From the IMG/VR virus record IMGVR_UViG_2711768002_000004: a stretch of DNA of 39,841 bases; one strand, written 5' to 3'. Origin of the DNA: a virus (Duplodnaviria > Heunggongvirae > Uroviricota > Caudoviricetes). Shown in pieces: positions 1-39,841 of this stretch. Position 1 is the stretch's first letter. Each line of letters begins with the position of its first letter. The notes beneath the pieces were generated by a model, which was given only the letters and a program-made list of their open reading frames with translations, was not told where the DNA came from and searched no databases. The position numbers and the translations under genes are program-made.

Positions 1-153
1 TATACAGCAATGTCGCCAACGTTGTACTCGTTGTGCCAGCCCGGTTTCAGATACACACCATATTTTCCAGTCCGCGCATGGAAACAGTATTCACCATCGT
101 TTCCTGTCATCACATCAGCAACAGTGTGCATCACCACTTCCGGGGTGTTTACC
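1..153 (-). other. Flanking DNA outside the IS66-family element; minus strand carries an open frame of about 50 codons running off the window start (possible IS-disrupted gene fragment)
   Basis: Minus-strand frame translates without stops as NTPEVVMHTVADVMTGNDGEYCFHARTGKYGVYLKPGWHNEYNVGDIAV; lies outside the GTAAGCG motif at 154 that I take as the IS terminus. Could be chance. Confidence 0.25.
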
Positions 154-560
154 GTAAGCGTGCAGCAAGAACCGTATTGACGGGAATGTGTTATTCAGTC
201 GGCAGTGCTACGCGCCAGGGGAGCAGTTCGCCGACCCGGTTTATCGGCCAGTCGGCTATGACGTCAAGGACATAGCGGAGGTAGCTTTCTGGCTCCACTC
301 CGTTCAGTTTGCACGTCCCGATCAGGCTGTACAGCAGCGCTCCCCGCTCTCCTCCATGATCCGAACCGAAGAACAGGTAGTTTTTGCGGCCCAGACTGAC
401 CATCCGCAACGCATTTTCAGCGATGTTATTGTCCGCCTCAGCCCAGCCATCATCTGCATAGTACGTCAGCGCCGGCCACTGGTTCAGGGCGTATGCGAAC
501 GCTTTCGCCAGTTCTGAGTGTCGCGACAGGGTTTTCATCTTTTCACGCAGCCAGCTTTCC
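154..560 (-). mobile_element. IS66-family insertion sequence, right-hand portion (terminal repeat region plus 3' part of tnpC), cut by the N gap
   Basis: tnpC C-terminal reading frame at 191-560; GTAAGCG motif at 154-160, which I recall as the typical IS66-family terminus (from memory, not verified). Confidence 0.65.
191..560 (-). CDS. tnpC: IS66-family transposase TnpC, C-terminal fragment (frame stays open up to the gap)
   Basis: Translation MKTLSRHSELAKAFAYALNQW...DNNIAENALR...GRKNYLFFGSDHGGERGALLYSLIGTCKLNGVEPESYLRYVLDVIADWPINRVGELLPW matches the conserved C-terminus of IS66 TnpC as I recall it; N-terminal ~400 aa absent from the window. Confidence 0.85.
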
Positions 561-682
561 NNNNNNNNNNNNNNNNNNNNNNNNNNNNNNNNNNNNNNNN
601 NNNNNNNNNNNNNNNNNNNNNNNNNNNNNNNNNNNNNNNNNNNNNNNNNNNNNNNNNNNNNNNNNNNNNNNNNNNNNNNNNN
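561..682. other. Assembly gap (run of 122 N)
   Basis: Directly visible. Both the prophage right end and the tnpC N-terminal ~1.2 kb are missing, so true size is probably larger than 122 nt. Confidence 1.
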
Positions 683-690
683 TTAAGCGT

Positions 691-1428
691 TCATTCACTC
701 TCTTTCAAACCAGTTTTAACTGTTTGTGGTTTTGGGTAAGGCTGGACTTTGAATAGCTTTGTGTTAAGGCGTTTTCTGGCTCTCTTGTCCAGAAACCGGA
801 TGTAACGAAACTGACGGAATTTATGAACACTGGCTCTGTCGATATTAGCCCGCAGATGTTCACCTCGCTGTCCTCCTCGTTTGATTGCATTCTTGCAAAT
901 CTCGTGATACCACTCGCCATCAAGTTCATAGAATGTTGTTTCATGACTGCCTACATAATCAAAATTGCTTGCCTGGTACACGACACCAAGACAGCCACAA
1001 CGCTCATCTGCAAACGACTGAACCCACTGCACCTGCGGATAAAGTTGTCTGATTAGTTTGAGCGCGTAACTGATTGCCCTTGATTCGGAGTTTCTCGGCA
1101 TACAGTCATGCAGCCATAACCGGTTAAGCTCCATATATTCGCGGTTCTGCGTGCCAGTTACGACGCGTGCACCATTGTTTGGATTAAGGGCATAACCCCA
1201 TTGCATTACGCCAACCAGCTCCCGTTCTGAAAATATGCCCAGATGAAGGTAGGAATTATTTACGAAACGATGGCTGTAATGTTTATTGACGACGACCAGC
1301 CGGGCCAGCCAGCAACTTATTGTCTCAACCCGTAACTCACGGGAGCCATAACCGACGATATTGTCGTTATAGTGAATAAGTTCAGGCGTGCTGATGATAC
1401 GGGATGTAACTTGCTTTCTGTTCCCCAC
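691..1428 (-). CDS. mom: Mom-like DNA modification protein (start uncertain; GTG at 1428 with AAGGAAA upstream proposed)
   Basis: Long ORF 691-1623 overlaps com in another frame; gene position and the com overlap mirror Mu com-mom. No in-frame ATG downstream of com until far inside the ORF, so an alternative start is inferred. Confidence 0.65.
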
Positions 1429-1582
1429 GACAGGATTTCCTTGTGTATGTGGGGTGCTCTGTGGCGCTCTGAGATGTGATTTGATTGAGGGTTTTACAGC
1501 GCGGACATTTAACTTCCAGATAACTGAAGCTGGCTCGTGCCAGTAGCTTGTTACAATGTCGGCACCGTATGTTTCGATACAT
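1382..1582 (-). CDS. com: Com-like zinc-finger translational activator of mom
   Basis: [34 protein letters not shown]... has the CxxC-(17)-CxxC zinc finger and N-terminal pattern of Mu Com. Start moved to ATG at 1582 (AGGAGG 10 nt upstream); the ORF track start at 1627 is a TTG. Confidence 0.8.
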
Positions 1583-1624
1583 GGCCGCATAACCTCCTGC
1601 TTTGTTGTTGATATCTTTATCACT

Positions 1625-1720
1625 CAATCGATCGACAAAAACGATCGATTTGATTTATTTAATTGATACAACAAATAACACGAAATGTCATTAGCGAAAA
1701 TTTATGAGTTTGATCACTAA
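1625..1720 (-). promoter_or_regulatory. Putative com/mom promoter-regulatory region with clustered GATC (Dam) sites
   Basis: GATC at 1630-1633 and 1643-1646 (13 bp apart) and 1712-1715 in an AT-rich region just upstream of com; in Mu the mom promoter is controlled through upstream Dam sites and OxyR. Confidence 0.4.
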
Positions 1721-1838
1721 TTTTAAACGGTGCTGTAACGCATAAGTGCTGAATGATTGTACATTTGAATACCGCAAAGCAAACAAATCAACTAATTTAT
1801 AGAAGTCAATTGGTTAATTGCCAGCGTAAGAGGCTGCT

Positions 1839-2132
1839 ATGGACAATCATGTAACGACGAGAAATCGAAAAATGATTGAAAATGCGGAAATCTATAATGA
1901 TTATTTTTCCGATTATTCAGATGCCTGCAAATACAGTTCGAGTGCGGGAGAGTTCATATGCTTCAACTTTTTTATTAAATCTTATGTTTTTCCTCCACAG
2001 CAAGAAGATGGAGGTGTGCCACCTCCTGAAATCACTTTGCACCGTATAGCCTCCGTCTCAATGATGGAGCAACAGGCTAATGAGCTGTATAGCATTCTGG
2101 GAACGATTCTACAAAAGCGTGAATCGGACTAA
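1839..2132 (+). CDS. Hypothetical protein (97 aa), plus strand, divergent from com
   Basis: ORF with AAGAGG 7 nt upstream of ATG; AT-rich; no recognisable motif. Confidence 0.3.
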   Translation: MDNHVTTRNRKMIENAEIYNDYFSDYSDACKYSSSAGEFICFNFFIKSYVFPPQQEDGGVPPPEITLHRIASVSMMEQQANELYSILGTILQKRESD

Positions 2133-2299
2133 TGATACCGGTTCATTTGCCTGCCCGGATGGGGAAGCAGGATTGACTGCTCCATAAGCAGCTATATTTC
2201 TGAATACGAAATACTATCCAGCGATTACATATGGCTGGATAGCGGCAAAGATGTTTTCATTAGTGTCAAACCGGCAGAGGACACCACCGGTTTGTATTG

Positions 2300-2554
2300 T
2301 TACATCATGGTACTGTCAGTTCCGGGCTGAGCCGGGTCTGGTTGCTCTGGCTGCGCGTCGGTTTTCGGCTCATTATCAGCATCACTGGCCGCAACTGCTG
2401 GCCCAATAAGTTTTGCCAGCACTTCATCAACGTAAGTGTCGATTTGTGCCTCAAAATCCTTGCGGACCTGCGCTTTCAGCAACTTATTTACTTCACCGGA
2501 ATACAGTGCCTGTTTTACCAGGTCTTCAGTGACGGTGCCTTTAATTTCTGGCAT
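2300..2554 (-). CDS. Hypothetical protein (84 aa), acidic/Pro-rich C-terminus
   Basis: ORF with strong AAGGAGG Shine-Dalgarno upstream of ATG at 2554; part of the cargo locus between gin and com. Confidence 0.55.
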   Translation of the reverse strand: MPEIKGTVTEDLVKQALYSGEVNKLLKAQVRKDFEAQIDTYVDEVLAKLIGPAVAASDADNEPKTDAQPEQPDPAQPGTDSTMM

Positions 2555-2589
2555 GTATATCCTCCTTATGCGGGAATAAAGCCCTGCAA

Positions 2590-2772
2590 TCAGGGCTGGG
2601 TCGGGTCTTTTGGGAGCGGAGTTACCTGCGCTGTTTTACTGAGTTTTTCAGCTGCTGCGTCCTCAATTTTGCGGCGAACATAATTTCTGATGGCCTTATA
2701 ACCACCACTCACCAGATATAACGCACATACTGCCGTGCAGAAATACAATAAAATAAGCTGTAAAAATGTCAT
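2590..2772 (-). CDS. Small membrane protein (60 aa, one predicted TM helix)
   Basis: MTFLQLILLYFCTAVCALYLVSGGYKAIRNYVRRK...; start moved to ATG at 2772 preceded by GGGAGGG. Confidence 0.55.
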   Translation of the reverse strand: MTFLQLILLYFCTAVCALYLVSGGYKAIRNYVRRKIEDAAAEKLSKTAQVTPLPKDPTQP

Positions 2773-2787
2773 TATCCCTCCCAATTA

Positions 2788-2814
2788 TTGACATGGTGTT
2801 GACACCGGTAATAT
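2788..2814 (+). promoter_or_regulatory. Candidate sigma70-like promoter / direct TTGACA repeat
   Basis: TTGACA at 2788-2793 and 2799-2804, TAATAT at 2809-2814 (15-bp spacer from the first hexamer). Suboptimal spacing; could equally be a regulator binding site. Confidence 0.3.
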
Positions 2815-2868
2815 CTGTTAGGTAAAAAGGTGCACTGCATTTTTTGCTTTGGATATAACGATCTTTTT

Positions 2869-2910
2869 GCCGCCGGTTTCTTGTTTTCCCTTACCGGCGG
2901 CATTTTTTTA
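2869..2910 (+). terminator. Rho-independent terminator (9-bp GC stem, 15-nt loop, 7-U tail on plus strand)
   Basis: GCCGCCGGT...ACCGGCGGC followed by ATTTTTTT; lies 7 bp beyond the esterase stop. On the minus strand the hairpin is followed by AAAAAG, so only plus-strand termination looks canonical. Confidence 0.6.
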
Positions 2911-2916
2911 TCCTGC

Positions 2917-4971
2917 TTACGCGTTATTCACTTCCACCACGATACTGTCAATCAGTACCGGGTAAGTCGCATTTTTAGTGATATCGGTCACGCGCAACTT
3001 GTCTGCCGTAAACGTGCCGACCGGAGACTGCGACAGCATGAATGGTGTCCCGTCCTTACCATCAATGACCGGCGTCACCTCAATACTGTTGTTACCGGCA
3101 AAACGGAAGCCCAGCGTATGCCATTCGTTATTAAATGCGCCGAATGACCCCAGCTTCGTGTTCTGCGCCGTGTTTCCTTTGTGATACATCACGTTAAGGT
3201 CTGTGGCATCGCTCTGTACGTAGAACGATGCCAGCAGGTTATGACCGGCATTTCCTTCCAGAGTAACCCCTTGCGGCAGGGCAGAAACCGGCCAGTACAG
3301 CGCCAGTGCGTACTGATTAGCCGTAAGCGCGCCATCGAGTTTAAAACGACAACTGACAAGACCACCTTTACCCAGCAGGTCCGCACCATTACCAGCATCA
3401 TGCTCAAGGTACCAGGGGGCTCTTCCTGTTTCCTTGGTCAGTTTCATTGCCTTACCCCCGCTGGCTCCGGCATCATCCACGATTTGAGCCTTGCCACCTC
3501 CGGCAGCCCAACCCTGTGGTGTCAACCGTCCTTCAGACTCAGATGCCCGGTAAGCAAATAGCGTACTCATCGTCGTGGTGTCTGCGGGTGGCGTGGACGG
3601 TTTTGATGGTGTATCAGGTGACGGCTTCTCATCCGGTGGTGTCACGGTCTGCCCACGCATCAGTTCAGCCGTGCGCCCTGCATGGAGCATAATAGCTGAG
3701 GCCAGACGGTCTGAAATGACGCCCCTGCGTGCCCATGAGCTGAAATGGCTGTCACGCTGTGTCGAAACAAAACTGCCCTGGGTTCGGGATGCTGCACCGT
3801 AATACCCGACAGCCACAATATCCGGGTCTTCCGCCGGAGCATTCGTTGGCGTGCTCTGTCCATTCTCATCCGTCAGGAACGGTACAAAGAAAATTTTCTG
3901 TGCTTCCTTGCCTTTGTAGCCACCGTATACTGCCTCATATTTATCGGTGCCAGCGTTTTTCCAGTAATACGTGGTATCACCGCAAATCCACGGCACCGTG
4001 GTGGCATTTCCACTCACGCACTGCGCAGCAAGCGGAGCCAGGTCAGTTCTGAACTGCTGAACCATGGCCGTGAATAAACTATTATGCTGCTGGCTTCCTG
4101 AGGCAAGGTCTGCCTCTCCCTGCATCCAGACCACAGCCAGAAGTTTGTTTTTCGGGTTTTTCGCCAGCGCGACTTTGGTGCGGCTTACCAGGTCCTGATA
4201 CAGAGGTTTACCGGCCCCCCAGCGTGAAGAATCAGCGGAAGCACCGCTGGCCTCACTGAATGAGCCGTCGGCTCCAGTGGTGAATGCTGACCCGCCACGA
4301 CAACAGGGCACCAGAAGTATCCCGGCATTCTGTGGGATATAGGGAAGCAGTTTTTTGGCAATATGCAACCCCTGACCGACAGTCCCGTACTGGCCTTTTG
4401 CCAGATCAGCTTTCGGGTGGTTTATCCCGCTCATATCCTGAACATCATGCAGGCAGTGGTCTGCCGGAATGATGTCGTTGTATGTACACGACGTACCGTT
4501 GGGCGTTACCGTACTGCGGCGTGCCAGTTGCTTAATGCGTGGGTCCGGGCGGTCAAACGAATCCGGTAACGGCAGCCCCTCGCCGTAGGCCATGCCATTT
4601 GACTGACCCGCGAGAATGACAACAAAGTAATATTCCGGCTCTGAACTGCTGCCATTCGTGCTACCGGAAGGCCCGGCGTTATCCGGTGCATTCCAGTCGG
4701 AGGGCGTGAGCGTTCCGGCCACGTCAGATGTGATTGGAATGATGCCAGTCACGCCTGAACTGGTGATTTCTGCACTGGGATTACCGGATACCGGCATTAC
4801 CCATAATGGCTCTTTCGTGCTGAAGCGGATCACGCAGTCTGCGAAGGTGATCCCCCCTTTATTACCCGAAGGGCGGAAAGGGCTTTCAATAAATGCCACC
4901 GTGCCACCGGCAACCTTGACTGAAAACTCTCCGGGCATGGCGGAGAGCATTTTCCACTTGGAGTCTGACAT
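2917..4971 (-). CDS. Large cargo protein (684 aa) with SGNH / sialate-O-acetylesterase-like (DUF303-type) esterase motifs; putative carbohydrate O-acetyl esterase
   Basis: Motifs YFVVILAGQSNGMAYGEG (GQSN block) and AVVWMQGEAD (QGE block) recalled as typical of the family; Ser/Thr/Pro-rich linker and Gly-rich C-terminal ~250 aa. Sits where Mu has no gene (between gin and com). Confidence 0.6.
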   Translation of the reverse strand: MSDSKWKMLSAMPGEFSVKVAGGTVAFIESPFRPSGNKGGITFADCVIRFSTKEPLWVMPVSGNPSAEITSSGVTGIIPITSDVAGTLTPSDWNAPDNAGPSGSTNGSSSEPEYYFVVILAGQSNGMAYGEGLPLPDSFDRPDPRIKQLARRSTVTPNGTSCTYNDIIPADHCLHDVQDMSGINHPKADLAKGQYGTVGQGLHIAKKLLPYIPQNAGILLVPCCRGGSAFTTGADGSFSEASGASADSSRWGAGKPLYQDLVSRTKVALAKNPKNKLLAVVWMQGEADLASGSQQHNSLFTAMVQQFRTDLAPLAAQCVSGNATTVPWICGDTTYYWKNAGTDKYEAVYGGYKGKEAQKIFFVPFLTDENGQSTPTNAPAEDPDIVAVGYYGAASRTQGSFVSTQRDSHFSSWARRGVISDRLASAIMLHAGRTAELMRGQTVTPPDEKPSPDTPSKPSTPPADTTTMSTLFAYRASESEGRLTPQGWAAGGGKAQIVDDAGASGGKAMKLTKETGRAPWYLEHDAGNGADLLGKGGLVSCRFKLDGALTANQYALALYWPVSALPQGVTLEGNAGHNLLASFYVQSDATDLNVMYHKGNTAQNTKLGSFGAFNNEWHTLGFRFAGNNSIEVTPVIDGKDGTPFMLSQSPVGTFTADKLRVTDITKNATYPVLIDSIVVEVNNA

Positions 4972-5056
4972 CGTCTTTTCTGCCTGTTTCTGAATTAAAC
5001 AGAGTCAGAATAGCGACCGCTGAAAAATATGTGTTTTGCGGAAATTCAAAAAAGCG

Positions 5057-5629
5057 TCACGGTACTTTTGGTGACGGAGCTGGTGAGGCAGGAAAATAAC
5101 GATAAAGGGTGGAAAGGCCAATATCAAATATCAGTGCGATTTGTTTACGGGACTCGCCATTAGCCAGCAAACGGGCGATTTGCTCCCGCTCTTTCTCTGT
5201 CAGTTTCTGAGGTCTGCCGCCATGACGCCCCTGAGCACGGGCAGCAGCAAGACCCGCGCGTGTACGTTCAATAATGAGTTCCCGCTCCATTTCCGCCAGC
5301 GCGCCCATTATATGGAAAAAGAAACGTCCCATGGGAGTGGATGTATCAATATTGTCCGTAATGCTGCGGAAGTTAACGCCGCGTTGCCGGAGTTCTTCTG
5401 TTAAAAGGACAAGGTGCTGCATACTGCGTCCAAGGCGATCCAGTTTCCAGACCAGCAGGGTATCCCCTGGCCGGAGTCGCTTTAATGCGCGTTTAAGTCC
5501 GGGACGCTCCCTTGTCTTACCGCTTATTCTGTCTTCGAAAAACAGCTCACATCCTGCACATTCCAGCGCATTTCTTTGTAGCGCCGTATTCTGGTCATTT
5601 GTTGACACCCTGATATACCCAATCAGCAT
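5057..5629 (-). CDS. gin: Serine recombinase DNA invertase (Gin/Hin/Pin/Cin family)
   Basis: MLIGYIRVSTNDQNTALQ...VWKLDRLGRSMQHL...MGRFFFHIMGALAEMERELIIERT...STLYRYF: catalytic Ser region and C-terminal HTH of the Gin family; adjacent to the invertible tail-fibre segment. Confidence 0.9.
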   Translation of the reverse strand: MLIGYIRVSTNDQNTALQRNALECAGCELFFEDRISGKTRERPGLKRALKRLRPGDTLLVWKLDRLGRSMQHLVLLTEELRQRGVNFRSITDNIDTSTPMGRFFFHIMGALAEMERELIIERTRAGLAAARAQGRHGGRPQKLTEKEREQIARLLANGESRKQIALIFDIGLSTLYRYFPASPAPSPKVP

Positions 5630-5694
5630 ACGATTTCCTTATTATAAAAAGCCGGAATTGTCGCATGAGGAATAAAACAGAGTTAATCCTGGCT

Positions 5695-5720
5695 TTCCTG
5701 AAAACCTCGGTTTACGGGAA
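5695..5720. other. gix-like recombination site (left)
   Basis: TTCCTGAAAACC-TC-GGTTTACGGGAA resembles the Mu gix 26-bp site as recalled (TTCCTGTAAACC GA GGTTTTGGATAA); sits at the outer edge of the inverted repeat. Confidence 0.6.
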
Positions 5721-5830
5721 ACGGTAAACAGGGCGGCGAATGCTCTGCCATCGGACGGCACCGCCGTTGCCGCGAATAGACTCGCCACCCCAAGAAATAT
5801 TAATGGGGTTCCCTTTGACGGGACGCAGGA
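5703..5830. repeat. Inverted repeat, left copy, of the tail-fibre crossover region
   Basis: Reverse complement of 6902-7028 is near-identical to 5703-5778 (one mismatch seen) and to 5798-5830, with a diverged ~20-bp stretch between; compared by hand. Confidence 0.85.
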
Positions 5831-6068
5831 CATAAACATCACTTCTGGTATAACACAGCAGGATGCGGATTCCCGATATATCCAGGATATCAGGCTGGGA
5901 GCAGAGAACAGGCAGGTAATGTACGGTGGGGCATATTACTCTGCGTACGGTAATGTTATGGCAGGCCTGCAGATTGACAGTAAAGTTGATGCTTCAAACG
6001 ATTTTATAGCATTCAGACCCCTGCAAAAATTAGTCGGAGGTACATGGATTACGGTATCTCAGTTATAA
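5709..6068 (+). CDS. Alternative tail-fibre C-terminal coding segment (S'-like), currently in the silent orientation (no own start codon)
   Basis: Plus-strand frame reads ...[46 protein letters not shown]...FRPLQKLVGGTWITVSQL*; the first ~40 aa repeat the tail-fibre constant region, the tip is distinct but related to the expressed tip. Confidence 0.65.
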   Translation, partial: GLRETVNRAANALPSDGTAVAANRLATPRNINGVPFDGTQDINITSGITQQDADSRYIQDIRLGAENRQVMYGGAYYSAYGNVMAGLQIDSKVDASNDFIAFRPLQKLVGGTWITVSQL

Positions 6069-6119
6069 ATAGTCAGTAAATAATATATTTTAAAACAGAT
6101 TTATTTCCAGGAGGATTTT

Positions 6120-6641
6120 ATGGAACTAAAAAATATAACCCGTTATTATCCTGAAAATATGCCATATGGTAATAATGTTCAGTATTTCCAGAGTGAAGAT
6201 GGTAAGGATTTCTACGAATCCCTGCCATTATTCACCAAAAAATATAAACTTTGCATAACACCTGACAGCGGCGTTATCTGCTCAATATCACAGGACGCCT
6301 CGGCGCTGTATCCTGCGGGGTTTTCTGTGGTTGAGGTCGATGAACTCCCTGAAGGCACGGATATTTCAGGAAACTGGAAGTTTGATAATGGCATAATCTC
6401 CCGTATTCCGGTTAACTACGCAAGAAAACTGGAAGCAATGCGCCAGTCATATCTTAATCAGGCATATGAAAAAATTAATGACTGGAGAACGGAGCTACAA
6501 CTGGGCACCATCAGCGATGAAGACAGAGCAGCACTTACCCAATGGATGGCATACATCAGTCAGGTGAAGAAAATGGAACTACCCGCCATTAAAACAGAAG
6601 CTGAATTTAACGCCATTAAATGGCCTGAGCAGCCACAGTAA
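6120..6641 (+). CDS. Tail fibre assembly protein (Tfa / Mu U-like chaperone), co-oriented with the silent fibre tip
   Basis: 173 aa, AT-rich gene directly downstream of the alternative fibre segment; C-terminal ...DEDRAALTQWMAYISQVKKMEL resembles Tfa proteins. Functional guess from context and memory. Confidence 0.7.
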   Translation: MELKNITRYYPENMPYGNNVQYFQSEDGKDFYESLPLFTKKYKLCITPDSGVICSISQDASALYPAGFSVVEVDELPEGTDISGNWKFDNGIISRIPVNYARKLEAMRQSYLNQAYEKINDWRTELQLGTISDEDRAALTQWMAYISQVKKMELPAIKTEAEFNAIKWPEQPQ

Positions 6642-6672
6642 TAAAGAAGGCCGGAAGGCCTTCTGAATATCA

Positions 6673-7554
6673 TTATATACTTGCAGCCGTCACCCATGCT
6701 CCATTTAACAGATACTGCAACGGCCGGTAATACACGCCGCCGACGTTATCTGCCGTATTCTTACCGACATCCTGTACTTTAATTCCGGTAAGAACATTGC
6801 CGCCCCCCAGATTCAGATCCCAGCTTTCCCATGTTCCGGGCATATGTGCGGTCACCGACCCCAGTCTTATGGCGGTTACTGTTCCTGATGAGATAGTGAT
6901 ATCCTGCGTCCCGTCAAAGGGAACACCATTAATTGTGTGGGCATTTGCCAGCCTGTTCGCGGCAACGGCGGTGCCGTCCGATGGCAGGGCATTCGCCGCC
7001 CTGTTTACCGTTTCCCGTAAACCGACGTTATCGATAAAAGCCCCTTTATCCGGAATGTCTGCGCCGTTCTGCTCCCTGCGCAGGTAACGGTTATCACCTT
7101 CGCTTTTGCTGTAAACATCCAGATTATTACGGGCGGTTCCCTTATTCTCCAGGTCGGCGAGATTCTGATCCTTCGCCAGGGCATTAACGTCAGCGGGACC
7201 AAGACTGTTTTTTGTGGCAAGCGTCCCCAGACCAAGATAACCACGGGCCAGACGCTGGGCCTCCGCACCGGCATCAGCAATTTCTTTCAGGTTATTTTTC
7301 CGGGAAAAGGCATTCGCAGCGATAATGGCTTTAATGGACAGCGTAAGCTGGTTTAACTGCGCCTTATCCGGCTGAATACTGGCTTCAGCCAGAATATTCA
7401 GCAGTTCGGCCTGGAGAATATTCAGCCAGTCCTGACCAATCCAGCTGATACCTTTTTGTCCGTCACCTTCGGTAAACCAGGTGGTGGTATTACTCTGCGC
7501 CGGTGCCAGCGCAGGCATATTCGCCACGCCGGAATTATTATCAACATGAAACAT
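6673..7554 (-). CDS. Tail fibre protein (Mu S-like; constant N-terminal part plus currently expressed variable tip)
   Basis: Follows the baseplate genes; contains the crossover-region peptide [23 protein letters not shown]...[12 protein letters not shown] that is repeated in inverted orientation at 5709-5830. Confidence 0.8.
6902..7028. repeat. Inverted repeat, right copy (inside the tail-fibre gene)
   Basis: See left copy; hand comparison of reverse complement. Confidence 0.85.
7012..7037. other. gix-like recombination site (right)
   Basis: TTCCCGTAAACC-GA-CGTTATCGATAA; inverted relative to the left site. Confidence 0.6.
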
Positions 7555-8114
7555 TAAATAGTCTCCTCTTCATGGCTGTTTGCATAAACGTAAATAAACG
7601 TCTGCCATGCAGGCTTATAACGGTTCAGAATACATTCCAGCGCACCGCCTTCATAAATACGCAGCGGCGTGAGAATATCATCCAGCACATTCATATTCCG
7701 GTAGCCGGTTTCACTGTTAATCGTGACAATACTGACCCACTGCGAATCCGGTGAGGGCTGAATGTCAATCTGATAACCAAACTCCGCCGCAAACCGGATA
7801 TAAAATTCACGGTTCAGCGAGGGCTTCATCCGGTATTTATTTCCGGCATAACGCTGTCGCTCCGTGAGGGTGGCTCCGGCCATATCACACTCGGGAAGCC
7901 CGAGATAACGCTCCCAGTCTTCCAGCAGCAGGCGCGACGTGTCAGGGAAACGCTCGGCAAGCAGCTGTTTACCCGTCCAGGATACACGCGCTGTCGAATG
8001 ACTGAGGCCCAGACATAATGATGCCAGTACGGATGACGGACGCTTGTCCCATGCCAGCCCGTCAGGCAGTAACTGCAACAGGGCGCGCTGATGCGGGGTC
8101 AGGGTTACAGCCAT
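7554..8114 (-). CDS. Tail/baseplate protein (Mu gp48-like, P2 gpI-like)
   Basis: 186 aa; position between the baseplate J-like gene and the tail fibre; start overlaps the downstream gene. Confidence 0.65.
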
Positions 8115-9187
8115 GTGATTTCTCCTACCGTCAGCAGCTCACTGTCTCCCGCCTGAACTGACGTCAGCGGACTGCGCACTTCAAAATCCTCCAGATTTTT
8201 CACCCCTGCCACCGCCCGCCAGAAAGACGACGGCAGAACCAGACCGCCGGGCCGGGATTCGTTATACAACAGGTCGGTCAGCGCCTGTTTTACGGCCGCC
8301 TGATTCTCCGGTGTTTTCGGGATGATCCTGATGCTGAAGGGCACCGGCTTATTGGTCAGTTTAAACACGGTCACCGTCGGCCCCAGAGGCTGTCCGACAG
8401 GCTGGCCGGTCGCCGGATCATCATGACTGCGGATATAATCCGCCACCCGCTGAACATCACCGTCACCGGGGAAAATATCCGGGTTATTATCCTGAACAAA
8501 CGTTACCCCCACGCTGCCCGCCTGCGGCCATTCCGGGCGGCACCATGCCCGCGTCACGCCCGGCACTTCACGCGCCCAGCGTTCAAAATCATACTGCGTG
8601 CCGCCGGACGGTGGATTCTGCACCCGGAAAACCAGACGGGAAAGCAGCTCCGGCACGGTTTCCACATCCGCACCACCGGTGATCCCCGTTCCGGTCACCG
8701 TGGCCGTCTGGTTGATCCCCGCCTGCGGTGTGATAAATGTCAGTTTTGTCCCTGCCGGGGCATTCCCCGCACGACCGGCACTTTCGGCTTCCACACTGAC
8801 ATTCAGCGTACCGGCCTTACCGGTCAGGGAGGTGGTGATACGGTAAACCACGCCATCACTTCGCTGGAGAAGCACACCTTCCTTGATCCCCGCATCCGTG
8901 GTCAGCATCAGCTGAACCGGCCCGTCCCCCCGAGAGGCAGGCTTACGCATGACGCCCCAGAATGCACAGTGTTTCAGCAGTTCGGCTTCATCGGCTTCGG
9001 TCGGGATGATCTGACGCGCAATCCAGGCCAGATGCTCATGCTCCTGAGCAGATAACCCTGCCTGAGCGTAAGCAATGGCATTCAGGGTGGTTTCATTCAC
9101 ACCCGGCTGCGAGCCGGGCAGGCGCTGGCTGATATCCTGCTGTGTCTGCGTGATTAACTGTGCCAGCGGTAAAGGCTGATAAGGCAT
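8105..9187 (-). CDS. Baseplate J-like protein (Mu gp47-like)
   Basis: 360 aa; position and size; translationally coupled to neighbours. Confidence 0.75.
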   Translation of the reverse strand: MPYQPLPLAQLITQTQQDISQRLPGSQPGVNETTLNAIAYAQAGLSAQEHEHLAWIARQIIPTEADEAELLKHCAFWGVMRKPASRGDGPVQLMLTTDAGIKEGVLLQRSDGVVYRITTSLTGKAGTLNVSVEAESAGRAGNAPAGTKLTFITPQAGINQTATVTGTGITGGADVETVPELLSRLVFRVQNPPSGGTQYDFERWAREVPGVTRAWCRPEWPQAGSVGVTFVQDNNPDIFPGDGDVQRVADYIRSHDDPATGQPVGQPLGPTVTVFKLTNKPVPFSIRIIPKTPENQAAVKQALTDLLYNESRPGGLVLPSSFWRAVAGVKNLEDFEVRSPLTSVQAGDSELLTVGEITWL

Positions 9188-9624
9188 TACTCCCCCTTAA
9201 GATCAGCATAAAAAATCATGGGCCTCACTGAACCATCAGGCAGGGTTATGCGCACCGAAAGCGCCAGCCGCGCGTGTCCCACACGTTCTGCATGACAGAC
9301 CACGGATGACGCCACGCCATCCTGACTGAGCCAGCCCAGCGCCTCATCCGCGTAAGCACGGGCACGGCTTATCACCGAGGCCAGCGTTTTTTCCCGGCTG
9401 AGAAGCCACAGACGGGAGCCAATGGGGCGCGGGCGAAAACTGTCTCCCCACCATCCCCGGCGGTCGCGCGTACCGTCAGGGATTTCATCCGATGCCAGCG
9501 CCCGGCGGTCAGTAAACAGCGAAATCAGAACGGCCGTCAGCAGACTGTCATCCGTCAGCAAGTCGGCACCGTTCAGTTGCAGCGAACCGCACCCCTGATC
9601 CCATACAATTGCAATATCAGCCAT
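9187..9624 (-). CDS. Baseplate protein (Mu gp46-like, GPW/gp25 lysozyme-like family)
   Basis: Start re-picked at ATG 9624 (MADIAIVWDQG...), which overlaps the stop of the upstream gene; the ORF track extension to 9768 is an in-frame run-on. Confidence 0.7.
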   Translation of the reverse strand: MADIAIVWDQGCGSLQLNGADLLTDDSLLTAVLISLFTDRRALASDEIPDGTRDRRGWWGDSFRPRPIGSRLWLLSREKTLASVISRARAYADEALGWLSQDGVASSVVCHAERVGHARLALSVRITLPDGSVRPMIFYADLKGE

Positions 9625-10231
9625 TCTCCGGCGCTCCTGTCTTACTGCCTTTGCCGTTATCCTGATGCACATGGCCGGAATAGGTGATCCCGGCAATAAC
9701 GGCATCAGACATCGTGAACAGCCCGTCTGATTTACCTGTACCATCAAGCACGAAATTACCCTTAACATGCAGGTTTTTATCCACCGTCACATTGCCCGTA
9801 AAGGTGGCCTCCGGCGTATCCACCCGCATCCCCTCATCGGCGTAAATCTCCAGCATTTTGCATGTCACAATAATGCGACCATCCTTTGTTAACCGTATCC
9901 GGTGCCCCTCATGGTGATACACCCCCGTATCTCCGGCTGTGAGTCCGGTCGGGCGGCTGCGCCGGTCTTCCACCACAAGCACCACAGTCTGATCCCGCTG
10001 TCCGCCCAGACAGGCAAAAAAGGTTTCCGCACCCGGCAGGGGAACGCTGATCTGCCCGTACTGCTGGGGACGCTCCACATCATCAAAGGTTTCGCCGTCC
10101 ATGCCGGTGAGCTGCACATTCTGCATTTTCAGTTCGTCATGTGTGCCGGTCAGAACGCCCCGGCCAAACAACAGGCGAATACCGCGCGTTACCGGGGCAA
10201 TCAGGCGGCTGAACACTTCATCATTCATCAA
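9617..10231 (-). CDS. Baseplate spike / assembly protein V (Mu gp45-like)
   Basis: 204 aa; position between the baseplate hub and the gp46-like gene. Confidence 0.7.
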   Translation of the reverse strand: MMNDEVFSRLIAPVTRGIRLLFGRGVLTGTHDELKMQNVQLTGMDGETFDDVERPQQYGQISVPLPGAETFFACLGGQRDQTVVLVVEDRRSRPTGLTAGDTGVYHHEGHRIRLTKDGRIIVTCKMLEIYADEGMRVDTPEATFTGNVTVDKNLHVKGNFVLDGTGKSDGLFTMSDAVIAGITYSGHVHQDNGKGSKTGAPENG

Positions 10232-11345
10232 AGCTGATCCCCTGTTTTTTCATCTGCTGGCGAATAAAGGCATCAACATCGTCACCGGAACCACCCCGGC
10301 CCTTACTGTCCGGCTCTGCCGGAACGATAAAGCCGTCACGCGGTGCCAGTACCAGCCGGGTGACTTCCCCGTTATGTTCATCAAGTAAAAACTCCACCTG
10401 ACAGACCAGCAGTTCAGTCTGTTCTATACCGAAACGCAGGGCTGAAACACCGGTCAGCAGATTGACATCCCATAACCGGCCATCATCCCGGAACCAGCCA
10501 CGCACGGTGGCAGAAAACCGTTCTGAACGGGCAATCGCACGGCGCATTTCACGCAGGGCACGCTGCCGTGCACCGGTGGTGTCTGTCTGTTGATCGGCGA
10601 GGATGATTTTCGACCGGTAGCGGCCGATCTGCTCATCACTGATGACGCCCACAGGTGCTGCCAGACGGGCGGCGGATTCGCTGTCTCCCCGTTTGCCACC
10701 ACCGCGCCCGTGTCCCCGGACACGGTATTCGCTGTATCGTCCTCGCCAGTCCGTGTTGTAATCGGCATCAAGCAGGTTATCTCCCAGCACCAGTCTGTCC
10801 GTCTGCTGGCTTCCTGCCTGGGTGAACACCAGATCGCCGTCAGCATTACTGGTCACCAGCACCCCGCGATGCCGGGCAGCACGGGTCAGCGCATCCGCCA
10901 CGGTTTCTGAGTTTTCCAGCGTAAAAGAGCTGAAGGGGCGTGCAGCCGTGTCGTCGTTAACCTGCCAGCGCACGGCTATCCCGAAGGGCGCACATAAATC
11001 TGCGGCAATCTGTGCCAGCGTCCGGTTGCGCCACTGGCTGCCGGGATGGATGGCGGCACAGTCCACCAGGTCGCCGGTTTTATCCCGACCGCTGATGCTG
11101 ATCTGATGACGGGTTGCACTGATCCGCTGACTGACCTGATCCAGCCAGCCACTGATGACCGTCTGCCCGTTAATTCTGAGCGTCAGGGACTGACCGGTTC
11201 GCAGGGCTGAGGGGATGCGCTCACCGGGCAGCATCAGCCCCAGTTCAAACGACCCGGCCAGATGCTCCAGCGAGCGACGGACGCTGACCGTCAGCCAGCC
11301 GGAAAAAATACTGCCACCGATATACAGTTCAATCCTGCTGCTCAC
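10221..11345 (-). CDS. Baseplate hub / tail protein (Mu gp44-like, P2 gpD-like)
   Basis: 374 aa; MSSRIELYIGGSIFSGWL... ; position after the DNA circulation gene. Confidence 0.7.
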   Translation of the reverse strand: MSSRIELYIGGSIFSGWLTVSVRRSLEHLAGSFELGLMLPGERIPSALRTGQSLTLRINGQTVISGWLDQVSQRISATRHQISISGRDKTGDLVDCAAIHPGSQWRNRTLAQIAADLCAPFGIAVRWQVNDDTAARPFSSFTLENSETVADALTRAARHRGVLVTSNADGDLVFTQAGSQQTDRLVLGDNLLDADYNTDWRGRYSEYRVRGHGRGGGKRGDSESAARLAAPVGVISDEQIGRYRSKIILADQQTDTTGARQRALREMRRAIARSERFSATVRGWFRDDGRLWDVNLLTGVSALRFGIEQTELLVCQVEFLLDEHNGEVTRLVLAPRDGFIVPAEPDSKGRGGSGDDVDAFIRQQMKKQGISFDE

Positions 11346-34658: not shown

Positions 34659-34886
34659 TTAGCTGACTTGTTTCGCACCAACAGAACGGCATATTCCGCT
34701 GTAAACTTCTGTCGCACCTTCGCGATCAAGTCCGGCAGATATCACCATTCGTGTGCGGTCATTAAATTCAAAAAGTAAATCGCCACATTCTTTATTTTCG
34801 GCCAGTGAAATCACCTTCACGTTATCGAAATTAACCAGGTAAAAGCGTCCGTAAATATCAGGAATATTAAATACCGCCATAATCAC
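34659..34886 (-). CDS. Small early protein directly downstream of B (position of Mu kil)
   Basis: 75 aa; positional analogy only. Confidence 0.45.
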   Translation of the reverse strand: MIMAVFNIPDIYGRFYLVNFDNVKVISLAENKECGDLLFEFNDRTRMVISAGLDREGATEVYSGICRSVGAKQVS

Positions 34887-35824
34887 ACCTGTGAGAGTAA
34901 TTCAGGGTTGGTATAAACCTCTTTAAAGGCCGCATTAATATGTTTTTCTGTCAGCGCCGCGCCTTCACCGCTGGCGGTGAGCCACGCCTGGTTAAGCGTA
35001 TGTGTCAGAACGCGTAACGCTCCCGGCTTTTCAGCGATAGCCTGCATGACGGCCAGCTCGGCCTCACCACTGATCCCCCACGCCATGGCAATGGCCAGCA
35101 CATCCGCCTTTTTGGCCTTGCGAAGTTGTTTTGTACGGGCAAGACGGCTGAACAGGCGCGATAAATCATCAAAGGCGCGGCGTCCACCTTTAAACAATCC
35201 GCGCGGGTTACCAATAAGCACCATCCCGATCCCCGTGGCGTCCTGAATTGCCCGGAGTTGCTCCAGACCGTCAATACCAAGATGATCCGCCTCATCCACA
35301 ATCACCAGTCCACGCGTTCCCATCAGGCGACGGCGGATGGCGCGGGATAATGCCCCTTTGTTCGCGCGGGTGTAATCAATCCCCAGCGCATCGGCCAGCT
35401 CCAGCAGACACTCCGTGACGCTGGAGTGCGCGGGTGACAGGGTGATCATCCAGGTGTTTGGTTGCTCCTGGCAGTAATTACGGGCAGTGGCCGTTTTACC
35501 CACACCCGGTACGCCCACAATAACGTTAATACAGCCCATCAGGCGAACCGCCTGAAACAGTGCGCGCAGCTCCTGGACTGTCTGAGTTTCCACAAACTGC
35601 GGCGGTTCCGGCAGTGCGCTTTGTTTATTCCAGTTCTCATACCAGGAGCGCAGGGAAGCAGCCACAGCAGCGTTATCGCCTTTATATTTTCCCTTACGGA
35701 AAGCCGATAATGTGCCGTCGGAAATTCCCGCCTCTCTGGCGATGGCATACTGCGTCAGTACGCCGCCATCAATAAGTTCATCAATGGTCTTGATTACATC
35801 GTTAATATCGGTCATATTATTCAC
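34883..35824 (-). CDS. B: Transposition protein B (MuB-like ATP-dependent target DNA activator)
   Basis: 313 aa; P-loop VGVPGVGKTATARNY, DEADHLG, and end-to-end similarity to Mu B as recalled (PEPPQFVETQTV..., KPGALRVL...). Confidence 0.9.
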   Translation of the reverse strand: MNNMTDINDVIKTIDELIDGGVLTQYAIAREAGISDGTLSAFRKGKYKGDNAAVAASLRSWYENWNKQSALPEPPQFVETQTVQELRALFQAVRLMGCINVIVGVPGVGKTATARNYCQEQPNTWMITLSPAHSSVTECLLELADALGIDYTRANKGALSRAIRRRLMGTRGLVIVDEADHLGIDGLEQLRAIQDATGIGMVLIGNPRGLFKGGRRAFDDLSRLFSRLARTKQLRKAKKADVLAIAMAWGISGEAELAVMQAIAEKPGALRVLTHTLNQAWLTASGEGAALTEKHINAAFKEVYTNPELLSQV

Positions 35825-35897: not shown

Positions 35898-37985
35898 TCA
35901 GGCCAGCGGATCACTTTCTTTTAATTTCGCTTCGAGCAGTTGCAATCCCCGCTGGAAATTACGCTCGTATTCTTCATCAGGTTCATCGTCAGCGACCGGT
36001 TGCTGAACGGTCACCGTATTACCCACAGGGCGGTATATGTTTTCCAGCCAGGGCTCCTGCGGCTTGTGCTCCAGCACGTTGACAACCTCATCCTCGGCAT
36101 CACGGATTTTTTCCTCTGCGCGTTTACGCATGCCTTTAAGGCGCTGCTGCTGTTTGTAGTATTCCGCGCTGACAGGGAAGGCTTCGCGTTTATTGCCGTC
36201 CCATACCGCCTCGCAAATCACGCTGCCATCCGGGCGGCGCACGGTAATTCGTTCGGCATCATGAATGTCATAGCTGATAAGTACCTTACGGCCATGCTCG
36301 TCACGCAGCTCGGGCGCGTAGTAAATATTATTCAGCCAGCGTATTTCACAGCGTCTTACAGGGCGCTCCACCATCGGCCGGAACATATCCCGCAGTTCAA
36401 CATCGGACAGCCATTCAATTTCCGTGTCCTCTTCCGCCAGGCGTTTTTTTCTGAACTCCGCCGGGCTGTAATGTTTACCGTTCGGCTTCATGGGTAATTC
36501 ATCGTGCGGCCGGTTGTTGTACCACTCAACACCGTCACGAATGGCATCAATCAGTTCAGACCAGGACGGTAAATCACGCATCGCTGACTGCTGCCGGGCG
36601 TTCAGCCGTTTGCCCTGTTGCAGGGCACTGAATGCCGAGCGTAAATCGCGGTTGGTTTTACGTAACGTCTCGCGATCTGCTCCTTTCCCGAAATAGGTGC
36701 GGTATTTACGGGCTATGCGCATCGGTAATGTGCGGTTAAGCCGTTCGATAATGCCCCGTCCCTGCGGATTACCGGCAATCCCTGTCGGGTGATTAATCCC
36801 CAGTCGTGGCAGTATCCCCACAATCTCCTTATCCAGGACGTCGGCGGTTTCCCCGGAGCCATTATCCGAGTAATACAGAAACGGTTTGCCATGATGGCGA
36901 ATACCGTGCTGTATGGCACCGGCTACGGCGAAAACATTTTCAGCCAGGTCAAGGCTCCAGCCCACCACAAAGCGCGTGCCACCGTCGATAACAAAGGTCA
37001 CTTCCGGTGCGAATGGCCGCCCGTGAACCGGGTGCGCGCATTTCAGCTTCATGCCGTGACCGTCACCAATCCAGACATAATTCACCGGCATTCTGGACCA
37101 GTCGCGGCGCGTGAATCCCTCAAGCTGACGGTATTCACTGCCAGTTACCCGGCCTTTTTGTTTCACCACTTCCGGCAGTTTCTTCATTGCGCGGCGAATG
37201 GTGTCATAAGAGGGCATGATATCGAGCATATAAGGCTCATCAGCGTGCCGGTGCTGCCATTCAGCAACAAAATCCTCGTAAGCCTCGGTCATTGGTCGGC
37301 CGTTTGACTGGCGATACTGCGCCAGAAATTCGGGCAGCCAGTTAATATCTTCGGCTTTTATTTCCTGGCGTTTACCCGGTGCCAGTAAAAGCAGGCGTTC
37401 AGCGGCGTTCTGTGCCTTGTTAAAGGCCGCAATCCAGCGTTTCAGCGTGATTTCACTCAACGCGCGGCTGTTTCCCTTTTTGGCGTTCGCCGTCTCAACC
37501 ATTGCCACAATGCGCTCGTCCAGTTGTGATCGTGCCAGGCTGTTAACGAGGAACCGGATAGCTTTAGCGCAGCTGAAACCGGGTTGTTGCGTGAATTTCA
37601 GCACCTCACTGACGATCGCAATGCGTGCGTCTGCCACCTGGCGCTGGTTTTCAGTCAGGGCATTGAGGCGTTCGACCATCAGTTGTGGTGATCCGCGATA
37701 TGCCTCCACCGCATCAACCACGGCAGACGAGCGTCTGGCCTTTGTCACCACCGGAGCCGGTGATTCATCGGCTTTTTGCGTCATCAGTTGCAGGGCATAA
37801 CGTTCGCGTAATGCCTGCTGTGTCACTTCAGGTAAACAGTCAATGCTGTATTCAAAACCTTTAGCGCCTTTCTTGCGGCGTCTGCTGGTTTCGCTGGTTG
37901 CATACTTCCTGATTGAATAGCGAACGCCTTGCTCCGTTCCCGGCATCCCCGGTAATCCAACCAGTTCTTTAACTGAAGCAAACAT
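35898..37985 (-). CDS. A: DDE transposase (MuA-like)
   Basis: 695 aa; N-terminal VSPKE..LPG-like opening (ASVKELVGLPGMPGT) and position directly after ner. Confidence 0.9.
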   Translation of the reverse strand: MFASVKELVGLPGMPGTEQGVRYSIRKYATSETSRRRKKGAKGFEYSIDCLPEVTQQALRERYALQLMTQKADESPAPVVTKARRSSAVVDAVEAYRGSPQLMVERLNALTENQRQVADARIAIVSEVLKFTQQPGFSCAKAIRFLVNSLARSQLDERIVAMVETANAKKGNSRALSEITLKRWIAAFNKAQNAAERLLLLAPGKRQEIKAEDINWLPEFLAQYRQSNGRPMTEAYEDFVAEWQHRHADEPYMLDIMPSYDTIRRAMKKLPEVVKQKGRVTGSEYRQLEGFTRRDWSRMPVNYVWIGDGHGMKLKCAHPVHGRPFAPEVTFVIDGGTRFVVGWSLDLAENVFAVAGAIQHGIRHHGKPFLYYSDNGSGETADVLDKEIVGILPRLGINHPTGIAGNPQGRGIIERLNRTLPMRIARKYRTYFGKGADRETLRKTNRDLRSAFSALQQGKRLNARQQSAMRDLPSWSELIDAIRDGVEWYNNRPHDELPMKPNGKHYSPAEFRKKRLAEEDTEIEWLSDVELRDMFRPMVERPVRRCEIRWLNNIYYAPELRDEHGRKVLISYDIHDAERITVRRPDGSVICEAVWDGNKREAFPVSAEYYKQQQRLKGMRKRAEEKIRDAEDEVVNVLEHKPQEPWLENIYRPVGNTVTVQQPVADDEPDEEYERNFQRGLQLLEAKLKESDPLA

Positions 37986-37987
37986 AA

Positions 37988-38218
37988 TTACGCGACCTTA
38001 CGAATGTAGCGGCTGGGCCAAATCTCCTCGGGCGGCACCCCCAGGCATTCCGCGATAATCCCCTCATACTTGGGAACATGGCGGTATACCGCGTTGTACA
38101 GATTGTTCTGACCCACGCCAGCTTTACGGGCCAGCGCCCTCATGCTTCCTTCTCTGGCTCTGACTTCCCCCAAAATTCTTTGAGGATGCCAATCAGGCTT
38201 AACTTCATTTCTCGCCAT
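37988..38218 (-). CDS. ner: Ner-like DNA-binding early regulator
   Basis: 76 aa; ...DWHPQRILGEVRAREGSMRALARKAGVGQNNLYNAVYRHVPKYEGIIAECLGVPPEEIWPSRY matches Mu Ner pattern; stop is 2 nt before the A start. Confidence 0.85.
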   Translation of the reverse strand: MARNEVKPDWHPQRILGEVRAREGSMRALARKAGVGQNNLYNAVYRHVPKYEGIIAECLGVPPEEIWPSRYIRKVA

Positions 38219-38403
38219 GATTCATCTATCCTAAAAAGTTACGAAATTTGATAACTAAACTTAGTTATCAAGTTTGATATAAGTATTGATCCACTTCTGC
38301 TTCATGTAAAGCAAAAAAAACATCTTTCTTTTGTCTATTGTGGATCAATGGTTGCTGACAACACTAAAAGTTAATAATTTCAAATTGATAGGAAGAAAAG
38401 AAA
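38219..38403. promoter_or_regulatory. Divergent early control region (repressor / ner promoters and operators)
   Basis: 20-bp palindrome GATAACTAAACTTAGTTATC (38250-38269) flanked by TTTGATA repeats; 9-bp inverted repeat TTGATCCAC / GTGGATCAA (38286-38294 and 38340-38348), both containing GATC. Confidence 0.55.
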
Positions 38404-38949
38404 ATGAACAAGCAAACAACAACATCTCTTTCTTTTCCTGGTGGTAGAAAAGAAAGCATTGCTGAGCGTCTGAAAAGGCTGATTGGCTCCCGCAGCGTCA
38501 GAGCTGCAGCAAGAGATTGGGGGCTTTCATTTTCAACACTAAACAATTATCTGTCTCGTGGCACTGAGCCATCCTTAAGTGTCGCCCTTCAGATTGCGTC
38601 TATCGAAGGAGTAAGTGTTGAGTGGCTATGTGGATTCAGTGATGCATCACAAGTGAATCGGTGTGAGATCAAGGAAAATCAAGATGAAAGCAAGAAGATA
38701 ATTATGACGATTATCAGCGCACTTGATGAAAAAGACTTAGAGCAGCTATCGAAAAATTTGGTTCTGAATGGAGCCAAGTACTTAGCTCGGTTGTTAGAGC
38801 CTGAAAATCAAGATCTAATCCGCTTAGAAGGAAGGAAAAGAATAGCTGCATTACAGCTTGAAGGTATGTCTGACGAACGCGTCAGAGAGATTTTGGAAGA
38901 AACTGAGAGAAGTCGCAAATCTAACGCGGTAGAACCAAAAGCGGGTTAA
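38404..38949 (+). CDS. Prophage repressor, XRE/CI-type helix-turn-helix (functional analogue of Mu c)
   Basis: 181 aa; HTH ...SVRAAARDWGLSFSTLNNYLSRGTEPSLSVALQIASIEGVSVEWL; divergent from ner-A-B; no S24 peptidase motif seen. Confidence 0.75.
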   Translation: MNKQTTTSLSFPGGRKESIAERLKRLIGSRSVRAAARDWGLSFSTLNNYLSRGTEPSLSVALQIASIEGVSVEWLCGFSDASQVNRCEIKENQDESKKIIMTIISALDEKDLEQLSKNLVLNGAKYLARLLEPENQDLIRLEGRKRIAALQLEGMSDERVREILEETERSRKSNAVEPKAG

Positions 38950-39185
38950 TAGCATTAGCCCGCATTTTGCACTATATCGAGTATTTCGCATTGTTTGGAA
39001 CGCCTTAAAAGACTAAAACCACAGTATCAAATGAGTTGCCGATTTTATAATAAATGACTAATTATTGCACAATCGGTATCAAATAGACCTTATCCGCACA
39101 TCTAGCCATCACCTGTTTTATTTCAGTATCTTACAGGTGATTTCACCTCCTTTCACTAAACCCCTTGTCGGTATCAAATGATTCA
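38950..39185 (-). repeat. Prophage left end with three transposase-binding-like direct repeats
   Basis: (C)GGTATCAAAT at 39023-39032, 39074-39084 and 39169-39179; on the phage strand the element would begin 5'-TGAATCATTTGATACCG. Confidence 0.6.
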
Positions 39186-39506
39186 CCTGGTTATATGTCG
39201 CCAGTCGATACCTTCCAGCAGCATCGCCAGCTGCGCCTGTGTAAGGAACACTTTGCCATCACGGGCTGACGGCCAGGCGAAGCGCCCACGCTCCAGCCGT
39301 TTGGTCAGGAGGCACAGTCCGTCACTGGTGGACCACAGCAGTTTAACCTGACTGCCGCTGCGGCCCCGGAAAATGAAAACATGGCCGGACATGGGATCGT
39401 CTTTCAGCGCCGTCTGTACTTTCGCAGCCAGGCCGTTGAAGCCATTTCTCATATCGGTGATACCGGCAACCAGCCAAATTTTGATCCCGGAAGGTAACGG
39501 GATCAT
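39183..39506 (-). CDS. tnpB: IS66-family TnpB (orf2); 3' end apparently fused to the prophage terminus
   Basis: MIPLPSGIKIWLVAGITDMRNGFNGLAAKVQTALKDDPMSGHVFIFRGRSGSQVKLLWSTSDGLCLLTKRLERGRFAWP...; stop codon TGA (39185-39183) coincides with the putative TG terminus of the prophage. Confidence 0.85.
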   Translation of the reverse strand: MIPLPSGIKIWLVAGITDMRNGFNGLAAKVQTALKDDPMSGHVFIFRGRSGSQVKLLWSTSDGLCLLTKRLERGRFAWPSARDGKVFLTQAQLAMLLEGIDWRHITR

Positions 39507-39841
39507 CGCTTCAGTTCCTGTATCAGCAGAGTCAGGAGCTTTTCGCTGACATTGCCATTGAAGCGGAGCGTCCCGTGCCGGAACGTTACCTCACAGCTGA
39601 TACTGAGGGTTTTCGGGTCCTCTGCGAGCGATTCTGGCTGTTCGGCAGCTGCATCGAGAGTCACAGGAAGTAGCTGGGGGCTCTCTGAAGAAGGTAATAG
39701 CTGAGGTGTACTGGCAATAGCGGACACTACCATTTGTTCTTTTTTTAAGCAGCCATCTGATGATATTTTTCCCTGAAGGCTGCCGGGGAGATATTCCCCA
39801 GACGAGAGTGACGACGCTGACGATTGTAGAAAATCTCAATG
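39503..39841 (-). CDS. tnpA: IS66-family TnpA (orf1), partial; frame open to the window end
   Basis: Upstream of and overlapping tnpB; ...EKLLTLLIQELKR C-terminus; reading frame has no stop up to 39841. Confidence 0.55.

Follow-up and report, generated by a model that had tools for sequence, protein, structure and literature searches.

A run of 122 N between a Mu-like prophage and an IS66-family remnant is probably an under-sized scaffold gap

Results

Organization of the locus

The window, by which we mean the whole stretch of 39,841 nt that was analysed, contains only one stretch of letters other than A, C, G and T, a run of exactly 122 N at positions 561–682. It lies between the remains of an IS66-family element and one end of a Mu-like prophage. 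The features are as follows, with the evidence for each in brackets:

1–150, minus strand: 5' part of a tail-fibre gene (translation, matches to S. sonnei partial proteins, PF08400)
151–560, minus strand: last 410 nt of an IS66-family element, with tnpC at 191–560 and the IS terminus at 151–190 (identity to the complete element L004, Pfam)
561–682, no strand: scaffold gap of 122 N, predicted content 299 nt (gap-free contigs L055 and L057)
683–39195, minus strand: visible part of the Mu-like prophage (Pfam, identity to closed E. coli prophages)
39024–39178, minus strand: left-end copies of TTTGATAC at 39171–39178, 39076–39083 and 39024–39031 (motif positions)
39196–39199, no strand: TGTC, left-flank copy of the 4-bp target duplication (occupied versus empty site)
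39196–39701, minus strand: rest of the same IS66, namely tnpB without its last 37 nt and then the 3' part of tnpA (L004 2601–3106, Pfam TnpB_IS66)
39702–39841, no strand: IS600-like (IS3-family) element cutting tnpA (same junction in closed S. sonnei and in CP176614.1)

On the prophage side of the run, the stop codon of mom occupies positions 691–693 of the minus strand and is separated from the run by 8 nt (683–690), the spacing that the initial annotation had recorded. The 245-aa product matches the full Pfam Mom model (E = 8e-78), and the overlapping upstream ORF of 66 aa is identified by Pfam as Com. On the other side, positions 151–560 align at 99.0% identity with L004 936–1345, the final 410 nt of a complete element of the IS66 family, and 191–560 holds the C-terminal 122 codons of tnpC plus the stop, in line with the ~123 codons first counted there. 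The 115-aa ORF left of the gap contains the Pfam domains DDE_Tnp_IS66 and DDE_Tnp_IS66_C; it is no marker of the junction, as other Shigella with frameshifted copies of IS66 encode it too. Beyond the far end of the prophage the same element resumes at 39196–39701 (99.6% identity to L004 2601–3106), with a tnpB whose 107-aa product ends in phage-derived codons and a tnpA cut at 39701/39702 by the IS600-like element. This last junction is ancestral in S. sonnei, and IS600 replaces the left end of IS66. A complete IS66 has 1,255 bp between the two window flanks that are unseen in the window, which accounts for the initial annotation's estimate of about 1.2 kb of hidden tnpC.

The Mu-like prophage

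The prophage has a full length of 38,633 bp, of which 683–39195 (minus strand) is visible. Its genes include mom (691–1428), com (1382–1582), a Gin-like invertase (5057–5629), a MuB-like gene (34883–35824), the transposase (35898–37985), a ner-like gene (37988–38218) and, on the plus strand, the repressor (38404–38949), and Pfam also identified Mu-type baseplate, tail and head genes, Gam and Kil. The 695-aa transposase, encoded at the far end from mom, carries the domains HTH_Tnp_Mu_1 and Mu-transpos_C, and the MuB-like ATPase carries Phage-MuB_C and AAA_22. When compared with solved structures, the transposase sequence resembles MuA in no part other than the N-terminal DNA-binding domain (1tns, E = 7e-6).

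Positions 683–1700 are 100% identical in 13 of the closed E. coli genomes listed, and 1700–10700 is ~99.97% identical to a closed E. coli prophage, with strain 600029 differing at 3 positions. The type of Mu-like prophage found in O157 has been named Sp18 (PMC2669165).

Beside the Gin-like invertase gene we observed an invertible tail-fibre segment (5057–7554), as in the G segment of Mu. On its opposite strand lie an alternative fibre end, truncated on the 5' side, and a gene for tail-fibre assembly, and in the current orientation the 293-aa fibre gene is without an assembly gene of its own downstream. In the intergenic region between the repressor and ner, at 38313–38320, the window reads eight As and the complete genome CP176614.1 seven; this is the sole difference in 10.6 kb, and one record or the other may have been misread in sequencing.

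Sequence context in Shigella sonnei

The truncated TnpB of 107 aa is specific to the junction and was found on 108 contigs, named Shigella sonnei by their source, the listed accessions being mostly of the ENA style (CSE.../CSF...). One of these contigs is the complete genome CP176614.1, in which the left terminus of the phage is at 1,015,141 and the flank is identical to the window over all 646 nt. Exact-pattern scans of the genome and viral contig collections found no left junction, a similar scan of the viral contigs for a hypothetical junction of IS66 with the phage end found none, and the junction is carried by none of the closed E. coli genomes.

At the other extreme of the window, positions 1–150 (minus strand) correspond to approximately codons 28–77 of a lambdoid prophage tail-fibre gene whose N-terminus is cut off by IS66. 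The matches are S. sonnei partial proteins annotated as 'prophage tail fiber N-terminal domain', and the full gene encodes 388 aa in closed genomes. The window starts at most 3 nt from the point where many S. sonnei draft contigs end, so it is probably a whole scaffold made of two contigs.

The same neighbourhood has been the site of another insertion. In S. sonnei 53G (HE616528.1, L072 4519–8436) a related Mu-like prophage, with a 176-aa repressor and a 696-aa transposase, lies in the tail-fibre gene ~0.7 kb from the same IS66 remnant. Two S. sonnei lineages have thus acquired Mu-like phages independently within ~1.3 kb.

The gap interval in gap-free contigs

Starting from the 53-aa tail-fibre fragment of the window we reached a partial S. 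sonnei protein and, from it, the cluster member P0097 with its longest contig of 40 kb. This path led to gap-free S. sonnei contigs with the same insertion, namely DAEEAC010000028.1 (39,349 bp, with 6 similar places) and AAURMX010000193.1. The content of the gap was read in these two contigs, and seven further places were grouped as similar. From its 39,349 bp, the far end of DAEEAC010000028.1 was placed at the left terminus of the phage. Compared with the window, both contigs show one difference over 22–560, at position 491, and none over 683–9954. The latter range includes 3655A, a nucleotide that differs from all ten other phage copies examined and is thus a lineage-specific SNP; it falls in a third codon position, T in the window versus C elsewhere, and is synonymous under the standard code.

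Between the gap edges both contigs hold 299 nt, compared with the 122 N of the window. IS66 accounts for 175 of them, and the TGTC target duplication and a 120-nt phage end make up the rest. In order, tnpC continues for 52 nt to the deletion junction, its 5' end follows with 37 nt, and then come the 49-nt spacer, the final 37 nt of tnpB, TGTC and the phage end. In the sequence reconstructed from them, the right junction would read GGCTGTC joined to TATAGCGCGG. The hidden part of the IS thus amounts to 89 nt of tnpC, the 49-nt tnpB–tnpC spacer and, with the TGTC duplication counted in, 41 nt from the 3' end of tnpB, and these 179 nt are identical to the IS66-deletion locus without phage. When window 1–560, the 179 nt and window 39200–39841 are placed in a row, they reproduce, except for position 491, the uninterrupted locus of 4 of the 10 closed or large S. 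sonnei contigs retrieved. The order and orientation of the flanks are the same in both gap-free contigs and in this reconstructed empty site.

The initial annotation had taken the N run for a placeholder of a longer stretch that also hides the right end of the prophage; both proposals are supported by these contigs and by closed copies of the prophage, in which 120 further nt with three repeats of an end motif follow. It had also placed about 1.2 kb of tnpC in the gap, and there the contigs contradict it: only 89 nt of the gene are hidden, and 1,080 bp are deleted from the IS copy itself. Its description of the region as repeat-rich holds for the IS sequence common to other IS66 copies and for the short repeats of the phage end, and in no further sense.

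The IS66 copy and its tnpC deletion

The tnpC gene of this locus lacks exactly 1,080 bp (360 codons, in frame) between two 10-bp direct repeats, AGGCGCTGTT. The deletion junction reads GGCGCTGTT followed by TCAGCAGGAAG (also given as GGCGCTGTT followed by TCAGCAGG). In place of the intact tnpC product of about 510–530 aa by which IS66 is recognized, a protein of 152 aa is left, consisting of the first 17 and the last 135 residues of the transposase. It corresponds to UniProt Q3YYZ0 of S. sonnei Ss046 and is encoded on 674 contigs.

The same 1,080 bp are missing from this locus in each of the ten closed or large S. sonnei contigs that we retrieved. The tnpC deletion is older than the phage insertion, since a phage-free contig has it. 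In those ten contigs, which show the locus without the phage, the order is IS110, IS600, tnpA remnant, tnpB (115 aa), tnpC deletion allele (152 aa), tail fibre (388 aa), DUF4376 and ipaH.

Two kinds of assembly depart from this arrangement. In several drafts of S. sonnei the tail-fibre fragment is followed by a complete IS66 with a 512-aa tnpC and G at 491; either lineages truly vary here or the assembler was led through IS66 copies from elsewhere. Separately, CWZC01000017.1 (Sanger, 47.9 kb), which has the same phage junction and, by its length, extends ~8.4 kb past the phage right end, continues into a complete tnpA and not into IS600, probably through a different repeat path in that assembly.

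The nucleotide at position 491

Position 491 is G in the window, as it is in complete IS66 copies. Ten of ten closed or large S. sonnei loci have A there, and so do the two gap-free contigs with the phage. The G of the window is probably a consensus drawn from other IS66 copies, the alternatives being a private change or a conversion tract. The simplest reading would be that the IS part of the first contig took its consensus from those copies, and such an ambiguity among IS66 copies would also explain the break between the contigs.

The phage right end and the end motifs

The right end of the phage starts with TATAGCGCGG, and its 120 nt are identical in at least 11 independent insertions whose flanks all differ, the pattern by which the end of a Mu-like phage is recognized. 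Counted from the equivalent of window position 683, the terminus is exactly 120 nt further on, and the end reads TATAGCGCGGCGATTTTTTTGATACCG... Within the hidden right end, TTTGATAC occurs in three copies located 18, 40 and 75 nt from the terminus. At the visible left end, whose terminus reads ...CCTGGTTATA at 39195, copies of the same motif lie 18, 113 and 165 nt from the terminus and mirror the three of the right end. Over their outermost 30 nt, the two ends agree at 21 positions and form imperfect terminal inverted repeats. By analogy with the L1–L3/R1–R3 layout of Mu, we propose that the TTTGATAC copies are putative transposase-binding sites.

Protein records fix the right terminus independently. 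An ORF at window 543–698 (minus strand), with a GTG start at 698 in the 3' end of mom, reads across the phage end into host DNA, and 76 'hypothetical proteins' of 46–90 aa in the database match it. The 13 of these 76 sequences that we read all share ...KKSPRY and then diverge into the host, the next codon always starting with A. These phage–host fusion 'proteins' look like annotation artefacts.

Target duplications and terminal nucleotides

In four of four independent insertions the phage is flanked by 4-bp duplications (TGTC, CAGT, TGTT and CGTA). For TGTC the empty site is at hand: the tetranucleotide is present there once, and on both sides of the phage when the site is occupied. The right terminus is TATA and the left one TATA, or TGTA in one remnant, so that the 3' ends are TA, and CA in that remnant. 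The phage thus shows neither the 5-bp duplication nor the terminal 5'-TG...CA-3' that are hallmarks of Mu.

Discussion

The N run and its possible explanations

We consider it likely, with a probability of roughly 85%, that the N run is an under-sized scaffold gap over a simple phage insertion and that the real interval measures 299 nt. The window would be a scaffold of two contigs (1–560 and 683–39841) from a short-read assembly of an S. sonnei lineage, in which a 38.6-kb Mu-like phage would have entered, by one simple insertion, the 3' end of tnpB in a chromosomal IS66-family element. This IS copy would have been crippled beforehand, with its tnpA truncated by IS600 and its tnpC deprived of 1,080 bp between the AGGCGCTGTT repeats, and the N run would mark the spot where the assembler failed to link the IS remnant with the right end of the phage. 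The analysis shows the flanks, the sequence that sister assemblies carry in place of the gap, the earlier loss within tnpC and the site without the phage; we infer that the isolate of the window has the same 299 nt as those assemblies. The figure of 122 would then be the paired-end estimate of a scaffolder, set too small, and the break would have arisen because the IS part is common to other IS66 copies. On this explanation the right junction of CP176614.1, expected near 1,053,772, should read ...GCTTAGGCTGTC joined to TATAGCGCGG, followed outward by the tnpC deletion allele. Two observations count against this explanation, namely the G at 491 versus the A of the sister loci and the closeness of 122 N to 120 + 2.

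If the phage had instead entered a complete IS66, the gap would cover the 120-nt phage end and ~1.26 kb of IS66, ~1,379 nt in all. This would suit the 1,255 bp that are missing between the flanks relative to a complete IS66, as well as those S. sonnei drafts in which the tail fibre is joined to a 512-aa tnpC with the G491 that the window shares. We nevertheless hold it to be very improbable, given that the deletion is present in ten of ten closed or large S. sonnei loci and, together with the phage, in the two gap-free contigs. One contig has the deletion but no phage and shows that tnpC was shortened first. A second identical insertion or a gene conversion would be needed. As a matter of general knowledge, a 1.4-kb gap is unlikely to be bridged by short-insert pairs and sized at 122.

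The length of the N run could also be taken literally. The phage end would then be joined to tnpC with hardly anything between, at position 560 + 2, through a secondary deletion of 177 bp adjoining it, and 122 would be the 120-nt hidden phage end plus 2 nt. Mu-type elements can cause deletions next to the phage end. Against such an event, both gap-free contigs of this lineage have 299 nt in the interval and no sequence feature points to a deletion of this kind, and we find it hardly credible. The junction ORFs of 51 aa and 68 aa that a literal gap predicts were absent from the protein collection; the 51-aa ORF has seven possible forms, and exact look-ups gave no match to any of them, which weighs little. 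Least probable of all is a mis-scaffold of non-adjacent contigs or a deliberate mask of known sequence: repeated IS66 and phage-end sequences can mislead scaffolders and some stretches in sequence collections are masked, but order, orientation and both flanks agree exactly with the gap-free contigs and the empty site, and a literal mask would count 299 N and not 122.

The under-sized gap over a 299-nt interval is, in short, an ordinary scaffold gap at the junction of two kinds of mobile element that are well known already, and no novel reading of the gap itself has real support. The biological stakes are small: the gap is no evidence for an intact IS66 or one larger by 1.2 kb, nor for a phage-mediated deletion. 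What the analysis supplies is the probable closing sequence, with which the reconstructed scaffold would measure 40,018 nt, and a likely order of events in which IS66 entered the tail-fibre gene, IS600 then cut tnpA and tnpC lost 1,080 bp, and the Mu-like phage was finally inserted in one lineage. The junction of the phage with IS66 could serve as a marker of that lineage.

Comparison with known systems

The IS copy shares with the IS66 family the order tnpA–tnpB–tnpC, the domains TnpB_IS66, DDE_Tnp_IS66 and DDE_Tnp_IS66_C, and an identity of 99–99.6% to complete copies; ISSfl4 ORF3 is the name that one database source gives to a cluster member. The copy differs from complete ones by three defects: a tnpA cut by IS600, a tnpC minus 360 codons and a tnpB split by the phage.

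The type is the one called Sp18 in O157 Sakai. The Mu-like prophages of E. coli and Shigella are the same phage, with identical copies in many E. coli genomes and O157 copies that are ~95% identical. What sets the present copy apart is its site of insertion alone, which here is an IS66 remnant, at the 3' end of tnpB. A shallow search of the SfMu and Sp18 literature found no data on the ends or target duplications of this phage.

With the right end of Mu (attR, R1–R3), the end described here has in common that it adjoins com–mom and carries three close copies of a motif, matched on the left by one terminal and two distant copies. Imperfect inverted repeats (21 of 30) and an invariant terminus with varying flanks are shared as well. 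The motif, TTTGATAC[C/T], and the end sequence appear unlike those of Mu. Mu itself makes a 5-bp duplication and has CA at its 3' termini, whereas this phage has TA 3' termini and a duplication of 4 bp, features that agree with a transposase resembling MuA only in its N-terminal domain. We tentatively raise the possibility, which we think rather less than even, that a transposable phage widespread in E. coli and Shigella uses a chemistry other than that of Mu, by means of a transposase only remotely related to MuA. Were this true and undescribed, it would amount to a distinct strand-transfer geometry within the Mu-like phages.
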